Source: Acidobacteriota bacterium (GTDB lineage: Bacteria; Acidobacteriota; UBA6911; JACQSX01). Taken from it: a stretch of 15,504 nt of DNA. The stretch is taken from contig DASXQR010000122.1 of the NCBI GenBank assembly GCA_036507075.1, forward strand, positions 1 through 15,504. The letters run 5' to 3'. Position numbers: made by a program. This document shows, in pieces, positions 9,917-15,504 of this stretch (positions are counted from its first letter, which is position 1; every line of letters begins with the position of its first letter).

Positions 9917-12900
9917 TTCCCGCTCGCGGCTGGGAATGAAATTATAGAAGATGGGCAAATTCGAAGTCAATTGCAGGCGACTTAGTGTCCTTTGTACTAC
10001 TAACCATGAGAATTTTCGCGGCCTGCGCAAATTATTCGGGAGCGGAGAGACGGCCTGAGGGCCGTCTCAGCTTGGCAGGACACCTCCTTGACTTTTGGTT
10101 GCGGCTTCGCCGCGCTAAGCCTTTGTGGTTTAAAAGCCTTTCACCACAAAGGCACAAAGGACACCAAGATACTCGTGACATTCCCTCCCTGCTGGTTGAC
10201 AATCTGCTTGCATGCTGCGCACGCTCCTGTTCGAAATCGAAAAGCGCATCTGGCTGCTGGTCGGGTTTGTATGCGTGCTGATCATTCAATGGCTTCCGAC
10301 ACCCGCCGGCCTGACCTTCCAGGGAAAGCAGATGCTGGCGATCGTTTTTTTTGCCATCATACTCTACGTCACCGAACCAATACCGCTGCCGGGCGTTGCC
10401 ACGCTGATCGTGGTGCTGCAGGCGCTCTATCGCATTGAGACGCCGCAGGAGCTGGCGCGCTCGCTGATGAGCGACTCCCTGCTTTTCATCATCTCCACAC
10501 TGATGCTCGCAGCGGCCGTGATCAAACAGAACCTGGACCAGCGGATGCTATGGTTTCTGCTCAATTTTACCGGGCCGAATATCTCCGCTGTGATTCTCGG
10601 GTTTGTGACCGTGTGCGCGCTGCTCACGTCGTTTCTGGGTGAATCGGCCACCGCCTCGATTATGCTGCCGGTCGCCCTGGTGCTGGTCCAGCTCTTTTCC
10701 GAGCGAAGCCGCGAAGCCCCCCGCTTTTCACCGGCGCTGTTGTTCAGCATCGCGTGCGGGTGTGCCTTTTCGGGTTTTGGCACCCCTTCCGGAGGCGCCC
10801 GGAACGCCATCATGATGGATTACTGGCAGCGTCTCAGCACGGTTCGGATGAGCTACCTTCATTGGATTCAATATGCCTACCCGCTGCTGCTGGTGCAATT
10901 GCCGCTGCTCTATTTTGCGGTGCGAAGTTCTTTTCGCTACCAGGAAACCGATGTATTCGAACCGATGGTGCTGCTGCGTCGCAAGGTGCGCGAGATGGAG
11001 CGCCTCAATGCCAGGGACTACCTCACCATCGGTGTTCTGATCCTCACTATTCTCATCTGGATGACTTCCAGCGCCACCTGGGGTCTGGGCATCCCCGGGA
11101 TCGTCGGGGTGAGCCTGATGATGATCTTTGGCATTCTGGATTGGGAAGATGTCAATCACCGCGTCAATTGGGGAGTGGTGATGCTGTACGCGGGAAGCGT
11201 CTCTATGGGTGTAGGCGTCTACATCAGCGGAGCCGCGGACTGGCTGGGTGCGTGGCTCACCAATTTCCTGGCGCGCACCGGCTTTACACATGGAACGGTG
11301 CTTCACTTTTGCATCGGCCTGATAGCGATGGCCATGTCAAGCCTGGTGGGAACAGCGGGCGCGGTCGCCATTCTGGGTCCGGTGGTGCTTCGACTGAGCG
11401 CGCTTACGCAAAACAATCCCATTATTCTGGGAATGATTCTGGTGATCACTGCGGCGGCGGCGAATTTCACGCCCATGAGTTCTCCCGCCTGCACCATTGT
11501 GTATGGGAGCGGCCGCGTGCGCGCGCGCGACTACCTGCGCGTGGGCTGGAAAATGAGTCTGATTTCTTTTGGTTTGGTGTTAGTCTTTGCCAGATATATC
11601 TGGCCGCGCTTCTGACTTATGAAACTGCTCGTTTGTATCGGAGGAGAAGTTTTCTCCACTGCAACCGTGCGGCTTGCCGTGGAGTTTGCCGCCAGGTTGC
11701 AGGCCGATCTTTCCATCCTTTATGTGGGAAGCCCCATCACACAGTTCCACCAAAAAGAAGTGCAACTGGCCAAGGAAAAACTGGCGCAGTGGATGATCGA
11801 AACGCCTGAAATGAAGGTCCTCAATTCGGCGCTCGATATTTTACGCGAGATGAATTTCCTGAAGCTGGACAATCAGGGACAACTCAACATCCGCCACGGA
11901 TTCAAGCCCGAAATCAGCGGCGCCTTTGAGTTCCATCTTTACGGAAGCCTGGGTCAAAACGTGCGGTTTCGGTACCGCGAAGGCGAGATCGTGGATAACA
12001 TCCGCAAAGAAACGGAGCAGGTTCACTACGATCTGGTTTTTGTCGGCGCCAGCCAGAAGCGCCGGCTGGTGCACCGTATCCTGCAGTTTGTCCCCAGCAA
12101 CACGATGATGATCAAAAAGGGAGCGACGCATCCGGAAAAATTCCTGCTGTGCGTGAAGCGTTCCAAATCGTCGCGCTCCGCGGCGTGGTTTACCATCCAG
12201 ATCGCGCAGTTGCTTTCCATGCCGATTGAAATCCTCGCCACGACCCGCTTCCCGGCCAAGGTGGCGCGGCTCAAGGTAATGACCGACCGTTACATGAAGG
12301 TGTGCGAACGGTATCAGATTCCCAGCAGCAGTTACGTACGCGTCGGCGGATTGGAGGATGCTGTGATGCAGGTTGCCACGCCGCTGCACCTGGTTGTGAT
12401 GGGTCCCAGCCGGGTGAATGAGCTGATGCAGTATTTCTTCGGCAGCCTGCCCGTGAAAATCTCGCAAAAAGTAAACGCCTCCATTCTGCTGGTCAAAGAA
12501 GAGCGCAAAGAAGAGTTGAAGAACCTGCTGCAAAGACCGGCCTGAAGATTAGTTTCTCAGTTGATCAGTCTGTCAGTCCATCAGTCTGTCAGTCCATCAG
12601 TCTGTCAGTCGATCAGTCTGTCAGTTCCTCCGTTCCCCATAATCCCAGCCCGACAGTTTGAATTCACAGAACCACTGAAGAATGGGGGAAGCGTCTGCTT
12701 GAGGCTAATTCGTAGAAGCACTTACACGAGGCCCGAAGGGCCGCAAGGAAATAGCCCCGGCCGTCAGGCCGGGGAGCCCGGGTTAATAGCACCGAGCGCC
12801 GAAGGCGCGGCACTCGCAGCGAGCCCACAAAAATTTTGTCGCAGATTTTCAAGCTGGCCGGTTATGTAGATCATGGCTGGCAAATACATCTCGGCGAATC

Positions 12901-15504
12901 TTCATTTCGTCTGGAGCACAAAAGAGCGCAGGCAGCTGCTGAATCCGGAGTGGGAAGAACGTCTTTACGCCTACATTGGCGCCATCGTTTCGGCAAAGGG
13001 AGGCAAACTGATGGCCTGTGGAGGACAACCCGATCATATTCATCCCTATGTGTCCATGCCTTCCACTCTCTCGATAGCCGAGATGGTCAATGCCATCAAA
13101 TCAAATTCTACAAGATGGGTCCGGAGGATGTTTGACAGAAGATTTCAGTGGCAGGAGGGTTACGGAGCTTTCAGCGTGAGTAAATCGGTCGAGCAGACGG
13201 TCATTAGTTACATCAAGAACCAGGACAAGCACCACAAGCGAATCGATTTTAAGCGGGAGTTCCTGGCTTTACTGAAACGCCACGGCATTGCCTACGATCC
13301 TCGCCATATTTGGGATTGAGCGGAGGGTGTCGCGCCTTCGGCGCTCGGTGGTATGAATACACCTCCCCGGCCTGACGGCCGGGGCTATTTCCTTGCGGCC
13401 CTTCGGGCCTGGAGGACCAGCGTTGAACATATCTTACAAATACGCCCTGCGGTGTGCCAAGCACCCTGCGTTTTAGCTATTAGCCAAGAGTTGAAAAGCT
13501 AAGAGCCGATAGCTGAGAGCTAAGACCAGCCCTATGTCGTTACCCAGACTCTGGAGGCGAACAAAACGACAATTTCGGCGCTCGTTGCATCGACGGGCGC
13601 ACAAGCTCAGGCGGCGTCTGGCGCCTCGGGTGGGGAGCATTGGGGAAACGATTGCCCTAAGGTTTCTGCTGAAGAACGGATTCGATGTGCTGGCGCGAAA
13701 CTTCCGCATCGGAAAGGGGGAGCTTGACCTGATTGCCTACCAGGGAGAAGAGTTGGTGTTCGTCGAAATCAAGACACGGTCCCGTGCCGACGATTTTGCG
13801 CCGCAACTGGCGGTGACTCCGGCCAAGGAGGAACAAATCTTGCGCCTGGCCCGGGCATTCCGGCATCGGTATGGGCTGGAAGAAATGCCGGTTCGGTTTG
13901 ACGTGGTGGCGGTGACGTTGCGAGAAGAGCGGGAACCGAAAGTGGAGCATTTCGTAAAAGCGTTTTGAAAACCACAAAGACACAAAGGACACGAAGATCA
14001 TTTTGTGTTCTTTGTGCCTTTGTGGTCAAAGCCCCTGCAGCACTTCGCGAATGACCGCCAGTCCTTCATCCAGCGTCTCGCGGTCAATGTTGAGGGCTGT
14101 GCGGAACCGGATCGAACGCTCCCCGCACGGCAGGATGATCAACCCCTTCCTGAAGCACTGTTCCCGAAAGCGGGCTCGCATTTCATTTCCGGGCAGATCG
14201 AGCGCGCAGAAAAGACCCCGGCCGCGTGCGTTGGAGATCAGGTGCGGGAAGCCGGCCTGCAGCCGCACGAGCTGGTCGTGCAGATAGGCGCCAGTGACAG
14301 CCGCCGCCGAAACCAACCGCTCGGATTCGATCGCTTCCAGATACAATTTGCACCGCACCATGTCCACCAGGTTGCCGCCCCAAGTGGAATTGATTCGGCT
14401 GGGAACATGGAAAACATTCTCCGGTTCGTCGTCGATGCGGTCGCTCGACATAATGCCGCAAACCTGCGTCTTCTTGCCAAAGGCGACAATATCAGGTTCT
14501 ACAAAATGTTCGTATGCCCACATTCTGCCGGTCAGACCCACGCCGGTCTGCACTTCATCGAAAATCAGAAGAGCTTCGTTTTCATCTGCCAATAAACGCA
14601 ACTGCTCGAGAAATTCCCGGCGGAAATGATTGTCGCCGCCTTCTCCCTGGATCGGCTCGATGATGATGGCAGCGATGTCATCGCGGTTTTGCGCAAATGC
14701 ATCCTTGATTTGACGGACGCTCTCTTCTTCTGCTCTGGTGACCTCCTCCAGGCTGCGCTCATCCAATGGGAAACTGATCTTGGGATTAAGCACGCGCGGC
14801 CAGTTGAATTTCGGAAAATAAGCCGTCTTGCGCACGTCGTAAGTGTTAGTCAACGAGAGCGTGTAGCCGGACCTGCCGTGAAAGGCCTGGCTGAAATGTA
14901 TCACCTGGCTCCCACGCTCCTCACGGTGCCCTTTCCTGAGGTTTCTGCGCACCTTCCAGTCGAAGGCGGTTTTGAGCGCGTTTTCGACGGCGAGGGCGCC
15001 GCCCTCCACCCAAAACAGATACTTCATGAAATCCGGCTTGGCGACGCGTGCGAAGGTTTTCACGAATCGGGCCATGCTGATTGAGTAAACATCGGCGTTG
15101 GAAACTTTAGTCACCGCTGCCTGCAGCAACTCTTTCTGTGCTTCACCGGTCCAGAGGTGAGGATGATTGAATCCGATGGGATGGGTAGCGAAGAAAGAAA
15201 AAAAATCTATGTAATAGCGATGGTGCAAAGCGTCATACAGCCTGCATCCCCGGGACTTTTCCAGGTCCACGACCAGCTCAAAACCGTCCACCAGCATGTG
15301 CCTGGAGAGCAGCGCGCGCACGTCGGACGGGTTCAGCGATTGCGGTCTGGAGTTTACAAGAGACATCTTCACACCTTCAGTATCTCGTGGCAGGCAAACG
15401 GCCTTCGGCCGGACTTGGTTTCAGAATTCGAGTCAGAACTTTTCACCACAAAGGCACAAAGAGCACGAAGGGAAGACGTGGGGCCGGCAGAGGCCGGTCC
15501 GCGT

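Follow-up and report, generated by a model that had tools for sequence, protein, structure and literature searches.

A probable REPtron-like locus in an Acidobacteriota bacterium, with the Acido-Lenti-1 motif as part of a DNA repeat around an IS200-related Y1 gene

Organization of the locus and its Y1 enzyme

The window, a 15,504-nt stretch of contig DASXQR010000122.1 (assembly GCA_036507075.1), carries two matches to the Rfam family Acido-Lenti-1 (RF01687), one on either side of a single gene (Table 1). Each match has an E-value of 7.3e-10, exceeds the gathering cut-off of 37 bits and spans the full model from position 1 to 46. The open reading frame between them matches Pfam PF01797 (Y1_Tnp) with an E-value of 1.3e-28. 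Positions, scores and gene agree with the initial annotation, which had described a 148-aa IS200/IS605-type Y1 gene between an inverted pair of the motif. The two matches belong to a 48-nt inverted repeat (12729-12776/13363-13410) that is complementary at all 48 positions, and a second, inner inverted repeat of 38 nt (12783-12820/13320-13357) reaches 84%. Each arm is a copy of a larger unit detected by a covariance model of the full unit, termed R1; in the left copy, the A-B module points outwards and hairpin B' faces the gene.

Table 1. Features of the locus at positions 12726-13413 of the window
Feature	Position	Strand	Evidence or remark
Left repeat unit, B'-spacer-A-B read on the - strand	12726..12818	-	Model R1, 75.7 bits, E 1.1e-15; inverted relative to right unit
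A-B module of left unit (RF01687 match)	12729..12774	-	cmscan, 53.4 bits
Hairpin B, left unit	12730-12742	-	
Hairpin A, left unit	12755-12774	-	
Non-conserved spacer between hairpins A and B', left unit	12775-12793	-	
Hairpin B', left unit	12797..12809	-	+ strand GCGCC-GAA-GGCGC; sequence, second inverted repeat, covariation in alignment A2
40-nt element, left arm to ATG	12830..12869	+	Common to Y1 paralogues of the same genome
Y1/HUH single-strand-DNA transposase-like gene, 148 aa	12873..13319	+	PF01797, NF033573, PDB matches, conserved columns of A3, predicted homodimer
Right repeat unit	13322..13413	+	Model R1, 76.6 bits, E 6.6e-16
Hairpin B', right unit	13332-13344	+	
Spacer, right unit	13348-13364	+	
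Hairpin A, right unit	13365-13384	+	
CTA after hairpin A, right unit	13385-13387	+	
Hairpin B, right unit	13397-13409	+	Terminal T at 13410
A-B module of right unit (RF01687 match)	13365..13410	+	cmscan, 53.4 bits

The encoded protein has the HuH motif DHIH (residues 54-57), the tyrosine motif YIKNQDKHH (residues 113-121) and a conserved C-terminal tail. It matches the IS200 equivalog NF033573 of NCBIfam (77.8 bits; cut-off 55), whereas none of the RAYT models matches at E ≤ 0.01. Its matches in the PDB are IS200-type TnpA proteins only, and the E. coli TnpA-REP (4ER8-type) is absent from these sequence matches at E ≤ 1. Among the best 80 homologues, 76 have the signature Y...Q..HH and none the class-2 signature Y..NP. 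These sequence features support a placement of the enzyme outside the classical RAYT/TnpA-REP class and fit the IS200-related TnpAY1 subclass 1.2, an assignment made from the Y---Q--HH signature and not from the profiles of Quentin et al. Structure prediction gave a homodimer score of 0.75, compared to 0.00 for the best control, with runs agreeing on at least 98% of contacts and a pLDDT of at least 89. In calibration, 20 of 30 proteins solved as pairs scored this high, as did 1 of 23 solved as single chains. The prediction suggests that the enzyme probably forms a dimer, although the score may reflect mere likeness, as IS200-type dimers have already been solved.

An ordinary autonomous IS200-type insertion sequence would account for part of this picture. 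In that case the 686-bp block of arms and gene would move as a unit, and gene-less inverted doublets of the repeat would be internally deleted MITEs. Gene-only IS200 elements measure about 700 bp, close to the size of the block, and the equivalog match, the nearest solved structures and the predicted dimer all point the same way. However, the ends of the block are inverted copies, whereas in IS200/IS605 elements both end hairpins lie on one strand and there are no terminal inverted repeats, according to PMC6006769 and PMC8266576. The block as a whole would thus not be expected to leave as single-stranded DNA.

The 40-nt element between the left arm and the start codon may be a promoter or a 5' UTR. 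Similar strings lie upstream of the paralogous genes on contigs C85, C107, C32 and C223 and, in part, C201, but it is not general: elsewhere its core heptamer was found in only 2 of 79 loci.

Structure of the three-hairpin repeat unit

The full repeat unit is about 90 nt long and has three hairpins in the order B'-spacer-A-B, of which RF01687 covers only the A-B portion. Hairpin B', with TGYGYCG in front, has a 5-bp stem and a 3-nt loop, and the spacer of 19-23 nt has no conserved sequence. Hairpin A, with an 8-bp stem and a 4-nt loop, is followed by CTA; some 8 nt further on lies hairpin B, the second one with a 5-bp stem, which ends in CT. Compensatory changes occur at 14 of the 16 predicted base pairs of the three hairpins in an alignment of 95 units. 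The opposite strand of these 95 units, which were chosen via an Rfam model that itself contains CUA, shows ATAG at the foot of hairpin A in 45 of them, TTAG in 17, GTAG in 16 and CTAG in 9; the canonical GTAG is a minority. Copies with modules about 93% identical have unrelated spacers, which plain copy-and-paste of whole units does not explain.

Acido-Lenti-1 might alternatively be primarily a functional RNA, either an sRNA or a cis element such as a 3'-UTR stabilizer or an attenuator of the transposase mRNA, placed beside the Y1 gene for regulation. Weinberg et al. graded the motif "y" (probably RNA) from covariation, as described in PMC2864571, and an RNA would show the covariation observed here too. 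The downstream arm is sense to the gene, the upstream hairpin B' lies 0-30 nt before the start codon in most homologue loci, and several copies in genome G075 start about 8-12 nt past a TAG. REPs are also known to act secondarily as RNA elements, according to PMC3733652. Against an RNA, 16 A-C/C-A pairs in one column of B' form wobbles only when read on the opposite strand. With about 24 G-U-type and about 21 A-C-type pairs, 16 of the latter in that column, either strand could be the functional one. The Rfam model moreover spans just part of the conserved unit, and the motif occurs on both sides of the gene in both orientations, as well as in gene-less (-,+) doublets. In this genome, units have no consistent orientation, whether the neighbouring genes are in tandem, convergent or divergent. 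Their stems are homogeneous within a genome and differ between paralogues and between genomes, a pattern of concerted evolution typical of enzyme-tied repeats. On balance, a primarily RNA function seems very unlikely to us, while the units may have a secondary role as RNA.

Distribution of gene and repeat

Repeat subfamilies in this genome are paralogue-specific, units are dispersed extragenically, and whole doublets recur at unrelated sites. Among the best 150 of about 1487 candidates, RF01687 has seven matches over the Rfam cut-off and 10 at E ≤ 0.001, the same counts as annotated initially, and 24 at E ≤ 1. Model R1 detects at least 39 units at E ≤ 0.01 among the best 150 of about 1576 candidates, and 35 of the 39 lie outside predicted coding sequences, compared to 15.2% of random 100-nt segments. 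Extragenic units are found alone, in tandem runs and, most prominently, as inverted doublets without a gene. All 10 adjacent gene-less pairs are oriented (-,+), like the arms around the gene, and none is (+,-). At least six full copies of one doublet family, about 250-310 nt long, have 83-89% identity and unrelated flanks. The inverted pair already noted on contig C146 (9610-9656(-)/9773-9820(+)) is found whole at least eight times in genome G153.

Six further Y1 loci in the genome encode proteins 33-43% identical to the window protein (tblastn), all with Y---Q--(H/K)H. The four loci with both flanks (C201, C85, C107 and C223) each lie between inverted arrays of their own hairpinA-CT(A/G)-N-hairpinB modules, and the arms of the C107 locus match solo units on C3 and C166.

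Gene and repeat are associated in both directions and across phyla. Starting from the gene, we analyzed the best 80 of 600 confirmed relatives (39-53% identity), which come from Acidobacteriota, Planctomycetota, Verrucomicrobiota, Bacteroidota, Calditrichota, Desulfobacterota and others. A significant inverted repeat between upstream and downstream flanks (z ≥ 6.5 against shuffles) is present in 66 of 79 testable loci and missing in 13. These arms are typically 85-100 nt long, abut the gene and share the three-hairpin layout. At E ≤ 0.01, RF01687 matches 49 of the 80 loci and is absent from 31, with a minus-strand match upstream plus a plus-strand match downstream in 33, contrary to the earlier statement that 39 of 40 relatives' loci lack the motif. 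Both flanking matches exceed 37 bits at 19 loci, and at least one correctly oriented flanking match exceeds the cut-off at 39. Near the genes, 83 matches have the canonical orientation and 26 the opposite one.

Starting from the motif, we surveyed 151 Acidobacteriota genomes, one of which (G049) is unpublished. RF01687 occurs in 39 of them at E ≤ 0.001, as annotated before, and in 25 over the cut-off. With the gene defined by a profile match at E ≤ 1e-30 and the motif by RF01687 at E ≤ 1e-3, both occur in 29 genomes, the gene only in 2, the motif only in 10 and neither in 110 (Fisher p 2.5e-20, for genomes that are not independent). One gene-only genome, G113, has six units by R1, and the other, G083, none by RF01687 or R1. 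The 10 motif-bearing genomes without a strong gene match include G087 (24 RF01687 matches) and G045 (10). The three gene-enclosing pairs of the initial annotation (G056:C13, G112:C1 and G075:C4) agree by coordinates. Its maximum of 37 copies was an artefact, as just 37 candidates per genome had been scored: with the best 150 scored, G147 has at least 97 copies and G075 at least 46. The reservation that copy number is low for a REP family does not hold for all genomes.

These data contradict a chance or compositional artefact, in which GC-rich hairpins would score with a short model near an unrelated gene. The model has only 46 positions, GC-rich genomes yield many low-scoring candidates (about 1500 here), and weak matches appear in 2 of 14 control genomes at E ≤ 1. 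Nevertheless, no control genome has a match at E ≤ 0.001 and reversed patterns gave 0 matches, compared to 25 and 22 real ones; together with the perfect identity of the arms and the significant inverted repeats at most homologue loci, this leaves an artefact with next to no probability.

The survey also bears on the insertion-sequence explanation. In G151:C18 and G154:C44, from the same family, the same symporter-Usp-UPF0102-aminotransferase neighbourhood lacks gene and arms, with UPF0102 inverted; synteny of the locus is not kept at the level of the family. The same picture would result from an ordinary mobile element. No clean-bounded presence/absence polymorphism was found among relatives about 70% identical, with one of three flank searches usable. 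Some genomes have up to nine profile matches, the copies on C32 and C223 are near duplicates of each other, and the doublet geometry is as expected for MITEs. By contrast, classic IS200-type matches in the same phylum (about 55-60 bits) come in sets of 5-10 identical copies (G127 and G015), whereas the strong matches do not, and the paralogues of this genome are divergent and have different arm families. The 148 largest flanking ORFs include no TnpB/OrfB. Housekeeping genes make up the surroundings, and about 10 sets of neighbours are shared between species, such as MM_CoA_mutase/MeaB, SecA, LpxA, ADSL and Bax1-I/ADH. With no identical gene copies, no tnpB and neighbourhoods shared between species, we regard an autonomous insertion sequence as unlikely.

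Proposed function and comparison with known systems

We propose, with a probability of about 0.78, that positions 12726-13413 form a REPtron-like locus, in which a single-copy IS200-related Y1/HUH gene of the TnpAY1 subclass 1.2 type lies between inverted copies of its cognate repeat. RF01687 would then be part of a DNA repeat family with extragenically dispersed units and not an sRNA gene family. This would make an orphan Rfam family one portion of a longer DNA repeat that belongs to a transposase-like gene. Our literature search found no paper linking the motif to a transposase; a preprint (10.64898/2026.02.09.704811) guesses at a regulatory role. The original proposal of a REP repeat of a RAYT stands as to a cognate hairpin repeat in REPtron arrangement instead of a free-standing sRNA gene, given the arms, the co-occurrence and the dispersed units. 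It needs revision in that the enzyme is not a classical RAYT and the unit exceeds the Rfam model by hairpin B' and the spacer.

By analogy with TnpA of IS608 and ISDra2 and with TnpA-REP of E. coli, Stenotrophomonas and Marinomonas, the enzyme, probably as a dimer, would bind folded hairpins on single-stranded DNA, and bases at the hairpin foot would select a nearby cleavage site. Candidate sites are the CT conserved behind each hairpin and the CTA that follows hairpin A. Cleavage and rejoining could spread and homogenize units and doublets while the gene stays in place.

The locus resembles the REPtrons of RAYTs (TnpA-REP, TnpAY1 class 2; E. coli, Pseudomonas, Stenotrophomonas, Marinomonas) in its solitary Y1/HUH gene between inverted hairpin repeats, extragenic dispersal, inverted doublets spreading as units and a separate repeat family for each paralogue. 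In both, the gene has no identical duplicates and sits among housekeeping genes. They differ in the tyrosine motif, Y---Q--HH here and Y---NP in RAYTs, and by sequence the window protein matches IS200-type structures and not 4ER8-type TnpA-REP. The E. coli TnpA-REP is a monomer, whereas an IS200-like dimer is predicted here. In addition, the repeat is a three-hairpin composite with a fixed-length, sequence-free spacer, just 16 of 95 units have the GTAG foot, and copies number tens to about 100, not hundreds. According to PMC8266576, TnpA-REP binds REP DNA as a single strand, does not bind the complementary strand, depends on the tetranucleotide at the 5' foot and cuts at a CT dinucleotide on either the 5' or the 3' side of the hairpin. 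Hairpin A on the opposite strand, with its NTAG foot and 8-bp perfect stem, resembles the Stenotrophomonas group-3 REP described there; Stenotrophomonas REPs have 8-bp perfect stems and a 3-nt loop.

Subclass 1.2, as described by Quentin, Siguier, Chandler and Fichant (2018, PMC6006769), shares the Y---Q--HH signature, the conserved C-terminal tail, low genomic copy number, the lack of IS properties and close kinship with IS200 TnpA. Its members generally lack the typical terminal secondary structures of IS200, and the paper's account of the subclass gives no DNA partner; canonical REPs are assigned to subclasses 2.2, 2.4, 2.5, 2.7 and 2.8, and atypical structures to 2.6 and class 3. Subclass 1.2 comes mostly from Cyanobacteria and Bacteroidetes there, whereas the window family is abundant in Acidobacteriota, Planctomycetota and Verrucomicrobiota.

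IS200/IS605 elements and their gene-less derivatives share the catalytic core, the closest sequences and subterminal hairpins; within a unit, B' and B are similar and in direct orientation on one strand, like a left and a right end. However, the window gene lies between inverted and not direct hairpin sets, with neither tnpB nor multi-copy identical genes. The Acido-Lenti-1 RNA of Weinberg et al. (2010, PMC2864571) has the same sequence and two-hairpin structure but is filed in Rfam as Gene; sRNA, as opposed to the part of a DNA repeat proposed here. The TIRYT/TIRtron systems of Acidobacteria (Di Nocera et al. 2013, PMC3733652) and the class 3 TnpAY1 of Acidobacteria and Planctomycetes (PMC6006769) also have inverted repeats around Y1 genes, some forming repeat families; those of class 3 are atypical hairpins with up to about 600 copies in Solibacter. 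Compared by description and not by Koribacter TIR sequences, TIRYTs belong to class 2 (2.1, 2.2 and 2.5) according to Quentin et al., and the Y----Q motif and CnGA foot of class 3 fit neither the protein nor the repeats. Altogether, the system looks like the known pairing of REP repeats with a tamed transposase, but with an enzyme from another branch of the family.

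The Y1 gene, its arms and their surroundings

A cmscan search of the window with Rfam 15 returned three matches over threshold, one tRNA and two copies of RF01687 (Acido-Lenti-1), and the latter enclose a Y1 transposase gene in inverted orientation. The two copies lie in a perfect inverted repeat of 48 nt (12729-12776 / 13363-13410, 100% identity), inside which is a second inverted repeat of 38 nt with 84% identity (12783-12820 / 13320-13357). As the inner repeat adjoins the outer one, each arm reaches a length of ~90 nt. The neighbours of the gene are ordinary, encoding a Na/sulfate-type symporter, a Usp-domain protein, UPF0102 and a class-III aminotransferase.

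Coordinates of the features at the Y1 locus (C numbers denote contigs of the source genome, to which the window belongs)
Feature	Position	Strand	Description or basis
RF01687 copy 1	12729-12774	-	cmscan 53.4 bits, gathering score 37, all 46 model positions
RF01687 copy 2	13365-13410	+	cmscan 53.4 bits, gathering score 37, all 46 model positions
Y1 gene, sole ORF between the arms	12873-13319	+	148 aa, PF01797 (Y1_Tnp) E 1.3e-28
40-nt element between left arm and ATG	12830-12869		common to the source-genome Y1 paralogues on C85, C107, C32 and C223, partly C201

The 40-nt element may be a lineage-specific promoter or operator. A family-wide promoter was rejected, since the core heptamer was detected at 2 of 79 loci elsewhere, compared to 4 of 76 control windows. 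Two tracts in the surrounding intergenic DNA are repetitive in their own right. A tandem 8-mer array (GTCAGTCC/ATCAGTCT) at 12548-12633 directly follows the stop of the Usp-like gene, and similar arrays lie on the source-genome contigs C192, C228, C73 and C204. Between the convergent UPF0102 and aminotransferase genes, positions 13967-14029 form an almost perfect palindrome (stem of ~26 bp, -38 kcal/mol when folded as RNA), copies of which (57-63 nt, 82-91% identity) were found on C217, C156, C35 and at two places on C196. It is a second palindromic repeat family with no relation to the arms, and may serve as a bidirectional terminator.

Two genomes of the same family (G151, contig C18; G154, contig C44) possess the window's neighbourhood without the Y1 gene or the arms. 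Compared to these relatives, the UPF0102 gene of the source genome (window 13534-13968) is inverted (G151:C18:3583-3877; G154:C44:5549-5769); in both of them it is convergent with the Usp-like gene, the two being separated by almost no spacer and by no Y1 gene. This inversion is a local rearrangement adjoining the REPtron, as an enzyme gene bracketed by its repeats is termed, and because of it the gene-less neighbourhood in the two relatives does not represent a plain site of insertion. In a metagenome scan, 20 nt taken from the end of the Usp-like gene had 0 matches.

Architecture and dispersal of the repeat unit

Lining up the source-genome matches together with their flanks revealed that the conserved part exceeds the Rfam model. 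The unit has hairpin B' (5 bp), which follows TGYGYCG, continues through a spacer of ~20 nt into hairpin A (8 bp/4 nt), and then has CTA, ~8 nt and hairpin B (5 bp), ending in CT. Acido-Lenti-1 as defined in Rfam is part of this three-hairpin unit, corresponding to hairpins A and B. In a consensus alignment of 95 units, taken from the window, 47 homologue loci and two high-copy genomes, compensatory changes were found in 14 of the 16 predicted pairs of the three hairpins. Wobble-type and A-C-type pairs are both present, a mixed strand signal in a comparison that is biased by the picking of units via covariance models.

The bases that follow each hairpin are also conserved: CTA after hairpin A in 87 of the 95 units, T after B' in 81 and T after B in 70. 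Read on the opposite strand, CTA places an NTAG foot at hairpin A, present in the same 87 units and as GTAG in 16, although the units were chosen through models containing CUA. In REPs, this 5'-foot tetranucleotide is GT[AG]G. The arms found by protein alone have CTAC (= GTAG) at the Y1 loci on C201, C85 and C107, and CTGA at that on C223.

Some loci deviate from this layout. Desulfonema magnum (NZ_CP061800.1, ~3.074-3.080 Mb) has two Y1 genes 3 kb apart (homologue loci L056 and L062), and in their flanks are tandem arrays of a shortened unit composed of a G-run, CTAC and hairpin B, without hairpin A. Likewise, the Flavobacterium arms keep CTAC and hairpins B' and B, with hairpin A lost. Flavo-1 (RF01705), likewise an orphan motif from Weinberg 2010, was considered as a second alias of the arms and rejected, since its two matches lie 70-170 nt beyond the right arm and differ in fold; they occur at two Flavobacterium/Bacteroidota Y1 loci (L090:2109-2168(-), 58.6 bits; L092:2131-2233(+), 71.6 bits) and could be due to chance. 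Same-strand runs of RF01687 matches were found in the acidobacterial genome G147 on contigs C112 (14854-16116), C85 (17071-17255), C74 (2698-2887) and C40 (5756-5870). The runs on C85, C74 and C40 have a period of 69-75 nt, and they suggest that A-B modules are arrayed such that each B doubles as the B' of the next unit.

The RF01687 counts of the initial annotation for the source genome, 7 over the cut-off and 10 at E≤0.001, were reproduced. A search with R1, our covariance model of the full unit, gave at least 39 units at E≤0.01 with 150 of ~1576 candidates scored, among which at least seven subfamilies can be distinguished by compensatory differences in their stems. Thirty-five of the 39 units are outside predicted coding sequences, compared to 15.2% of random 100-nt segments; coding sequences were called by a simple home-made gene caller (4166 genes, 81% coding) that reproduces the Pfam-supported genes of the window. 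No consistent pattern of unit orientation relative to neighbouring genes was seen in the source genome on inspection of these gene calls.

Twenty of the units lie next to a partner, giving ten pairs that are all (-,+) with B' innermost, in the same geometry as the arms of the gene, and no (+,-) pair was seen among the source-genome units. One family of such gene-less pairs, here called doublets, measures ~250-310 nt and has at least six full copies of 83-89% identity in unrelated flanks. The doublet on C146 recurs whole at least eight times in G153, a genome of the same family. As for the maximum of 37 copies per genome claimed in the initial annotation, 37 was the number of candidates scored per genome; with 150 scored, there are at least 46 RF01687 matches in the acidobacterial genome G075 and at least 97 in G147. 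The RF01687-bearing units are thus short, palindromic, extragenic and present in many copies, with doublets that replicate as a unit, as REPs and REPINs are. No clean pair of a filled and an empty site was found in the five nearest genomes at the neighbourhoods of the C146 doublet and of single units on C35 and C30, as these relatives are ~70% identical and synteny is broken.

Association of gene and repeat within and between genomes

Six further Y1 loci in the source genome, plus fragments, were detected by tblastn, with 33-43% identity to the window protein. All six have the motif Y---Q--(H/K)H, one of them as the Y---Q--KH variant. At the four loci with both flanks readable (C201, C85, C107 and C223), each gene is enclosed by inverted arrays of a gene-specific version of hairpin A-CT(A/G)-N-hairpin B, and solo units matching the C107 arms lie on C3 and C166. 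Except for the C32/C223 duplicate, there is one Y1 gene per arm subfamily. For two unit subfamilies, the large doublet family included, no Y1 gene was found in the 96%-complete assembly. A decayed Y1 fragment (residues 91-138, one inner TGA) at C127:10448-10591(-) lies ~85 nt from a unit of the subfamily found on C209, C29 and C46, and is probably its dead cognate gene.

A profile of five source-genome paralogues yielded 600 confirmed relatives, with one genome taken per species, and the best 80 of the 600 (39-53% identity) were analysed. They belong to Acidobacteriota, Planctomycetota, Verrucomicrobiota, Bacteroidota, Calditrichota, Desulfobacterota and others. An inverted repeat between the 400-nt upstream and downstream flanks (z≥6.5 against shuffles) is present at 66 of the 79 testable loci, and none was found in these flanks at the other 13. 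The arms are typically 85-100 nt long, abut the gene and display the three-hairpin layout seen in the window. RF01687 itself was detected at E≤0.01 in 49 of the 80 loci, and 33 of the 80 have a minus-strand match upstream together with a plus-strand match downstream, within 320 nt. Both flanking matches exceed 37 bits at 19 loci, and at least one correctly oriented flanking match does so at 39. Altogether, 83 near-gene matches are in the canonical orientation versus 26 in the opposite one. These numbers contradict the initial statement that 39 of 40 loci of relatives lack RF01687. An unrelated cobalamin riboswitch (94.4 bits) lies ~0.9 kb downstream of the homologue locus L046, at L046:2873-3050(+).

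The reverse comparison, from repeat to gene, covered 151 Acidobacteriota genomes, including one unpublished genome (G049). As in the initial annotation, the motif occurs in 39 of them. Matches to the protein profile are bimodal, with 31 strong (E≤1e-30) and eight weak-only genomes (1e-10 to 1e-16), and several of the latter (e.g. G127 and G015) carry 5-10 identical copies, like classic IS200. A strong gene match and RF01687 coincide in 29 genomes, with the gene alone in 2, the motif alone in 10 and neither in 110 (Fisher p 2.5e-20, a value that overstates the evidence because the genomes are related). A search with R1 gave six units, one of them abutting the gene, in one gene-only genome and no unit in the other. 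The motif-only genomes, which include G087 (24 matches) and G045 (10 matches), contain either orphaned repeats or genes that were not assembled.

Enzyme class, putative mechanism and relation to known systems

In 61 aligned sequences, H55 and H57 (in DHIH) and Y113 are invariant or nearly so, indicating the presence of the Y1/HUH core. The sole NCBIfam match is the IS200 equivalog NF033573 (77.8 bits versus a cut-off of 55), and a PDB sequence search matched IS200-type TnpA (2f4f at 3.9e-9, ISDra2 and IS608), with no TnpA-REP chain among the matches at E≤1. The motif Y...Q..HH is found in 76 of the 80 relatives and reads YIKNQDKHH in the window protein, and the class-2 signature Y[IVL]..NP in none of the 80. 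The C-terminal tail is conserved as well, fully at F126 and E129 and to at least 90% at L134 and D142 (61 sequences); the C107 and C32/C223 paralogues lack it or have another tail. No TnpB/OrfB was found among the 148 largest flanking ORFs. The homologues neighbour housekeeping genes, and ~10 sets of neighbours recur between species. The Y1 gene is RAYT-like in behaviour, with no TnpB, housekeeping neighbours and neighbour sets recurring between species, but the gene-less neighbourhoods in G151 and G154 speak against a strictly stable location.

According to the available passages of Quentin et al. (PMC6006769), TnpAY1 subclass 1.2 is characterized by Y---Q--HH, a conserved C-terminal tail, low copy number and no IS features, and is generally without typical IS200 end structures; in the same passages, repeat partners are given solely for subclasses 2.2, 2.4, 2.5, 2.6, 2.7 and 2.8 and for class 3. 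Judged by the signature, the C-terminal tail, the low copy number and the lack of IS features, the Y1 enzyme fits subclass 1.2. Excerpts of Bertels et al. (PMC5581495) mention a "RAYT-like IS200 Group 3", which lacks duplicates and has 16-mers in abundance at its flanks; it may be the same lineage as the window enzyme. The initial annotation had read Acido-Lenti-1 as the REP repeat of a RAYT transposase. This idea is largely right, and the REPtron layout stands; the enzyme is not a strict RAYT, lacking Y..NP, matching no TnpA-REP in the PDB and falling to an IS200 NCBIfam model, and the unit is larger than the Rfam model. The locus thus appears, from its protein and DNA sequence, as a REP/RAYT-like system that employs an enzyme of the IS200-side subclass 1.2 and a unit of three hairpins.

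Structure prediction gave a homodimer with a score of 0.75 compared to 0.00 for the best control, an agreement between runs of at least 98% of contacts and a pLDDT of at least 89. Proteins solved as pairs reached the mark used in 20 of 30 cases, those solved as single chains in 1 of 23. As IS200-type dimers have already been solved, the predicted dimer indicates likeness rather than proof. Y1 enzymes bind folded hairpins on single-stranded DNA and reject the complementary strand, using a 5'-foot tetranucleotide as guide and cleaving at a nearby CT, as described in the accessible part of PMC8266576. We propose that the dimer would recognise the hairpins of the unit on one DNA strand, and would cut and rejoin at the conserved bases after the hairpins, thereby spreading and homogenising units and doublets, while the Y1 gene, with its arms on opposite strands, would stay fixed.

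The spacer between B' and A behaves differently from the modules. Among 15 copies of one family in G075, identity is 0.94 in B' and 0.93 in A-B, compared to 0.54 in the 19-22-nt spacers, which are no better conserved than the 20-nt flanks (0.47-0.55). Similarly, the left and right arms of 34 gene-flanking pairs are ~0.9 identical in the modules and ~0.5 in the spacer. Modules that are alike beside spacers that differ indicate that something homogenises the modules without copying the spacer. Insertion of A-B beside a pre-existing abundant B' was rejected for G075, where B' (25 matches) and A (22 matches) occur ~1:1 and together at a fixed distance. Whole doublets are copied with their spacers, and six G147 units with a common spacer, found in at least three different flanks, were copied whole. 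One speculative reading, which we consider unlikely, holds that the IS200-class enzymes of subclass 1.2 represent a second, independent taming of a single-strand-DNA transposase across ~10 phyla, with a bipartite hairpin element as partner. The dimer would keep the two modules, B' and A-B, a fixed distance apart while rewriting them module by module. Cleavage and strand exchange would do this rewriting, so that the modules would stay homogeneous within a genome and the 19-23-nt spacer, never copied, would drift freely, distinct from the copy-and-paste of a whole REPIN.

RF01687 is typed as Gene; sRNA in Rfam. It has stood as an sRNA of unknown function since 2010, propagated by genome annotations and with regulatory roles speculated on in recent papers. 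The literature naming Acido-Lenti-1, in its accessible parts and apart from the comments in the supplement of Weinberg et al., contains no mention of REP, RAYT or transposase, and a search of the literature on REPIN, TnpAY1, REPtron and domesticated IS200 found no paper linking it to REP, RAYT or a Y1 transposase. If the present reading of a REP/RAYT-like system is true, RF01687 would be the DNA partner of a transposase-like enzyme and annotations would be corrected, and TnpAY1 subclass 1.2 would gain a substrate, which the 2018 classification had not been able to supply. The same reading also suggests an origin of REP-like systems on the IS200 side, besides the RAYT side. With a compact substrate of ~90 nt, many natural covarying variants and several cognate pairs within one genome, such units suit the study of hairpin reading and cleavage-site choice by HUH enzymes.

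Di Nocera et al. 2013 described acidobacterial "TIRtrons" (PMC3733652, seen in excerpt), the enzymes of which, the TIRYTs, are class 2 according to the passages available from Quentin et al. (PMC6006769). That these TIRYTs or class 3 of Quentin et al. represent the same system was rejected on protein signatures, as set out in those excerpts. Compared to IS200/IS605 elements, the TnpA type is alike. However, IS200/IS605 elements have end hairpins on one strand and no terminal inverted repeats, whereas the arms are inverted in the window and in most homologue loci; they also occur as many near-identical copies of the whole element, in contrast to the divergent paralogues of the source genome. 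The class 2 RAYT/TnpA-REP systems share the Y1/HUH core and a flanking inverted repeat that is dispersed extragenically, but differ in the tyrosine signature. Subclass 1.2 is matched by the window family in signature, C-terminal tail, low copy number and lack of tnpB.
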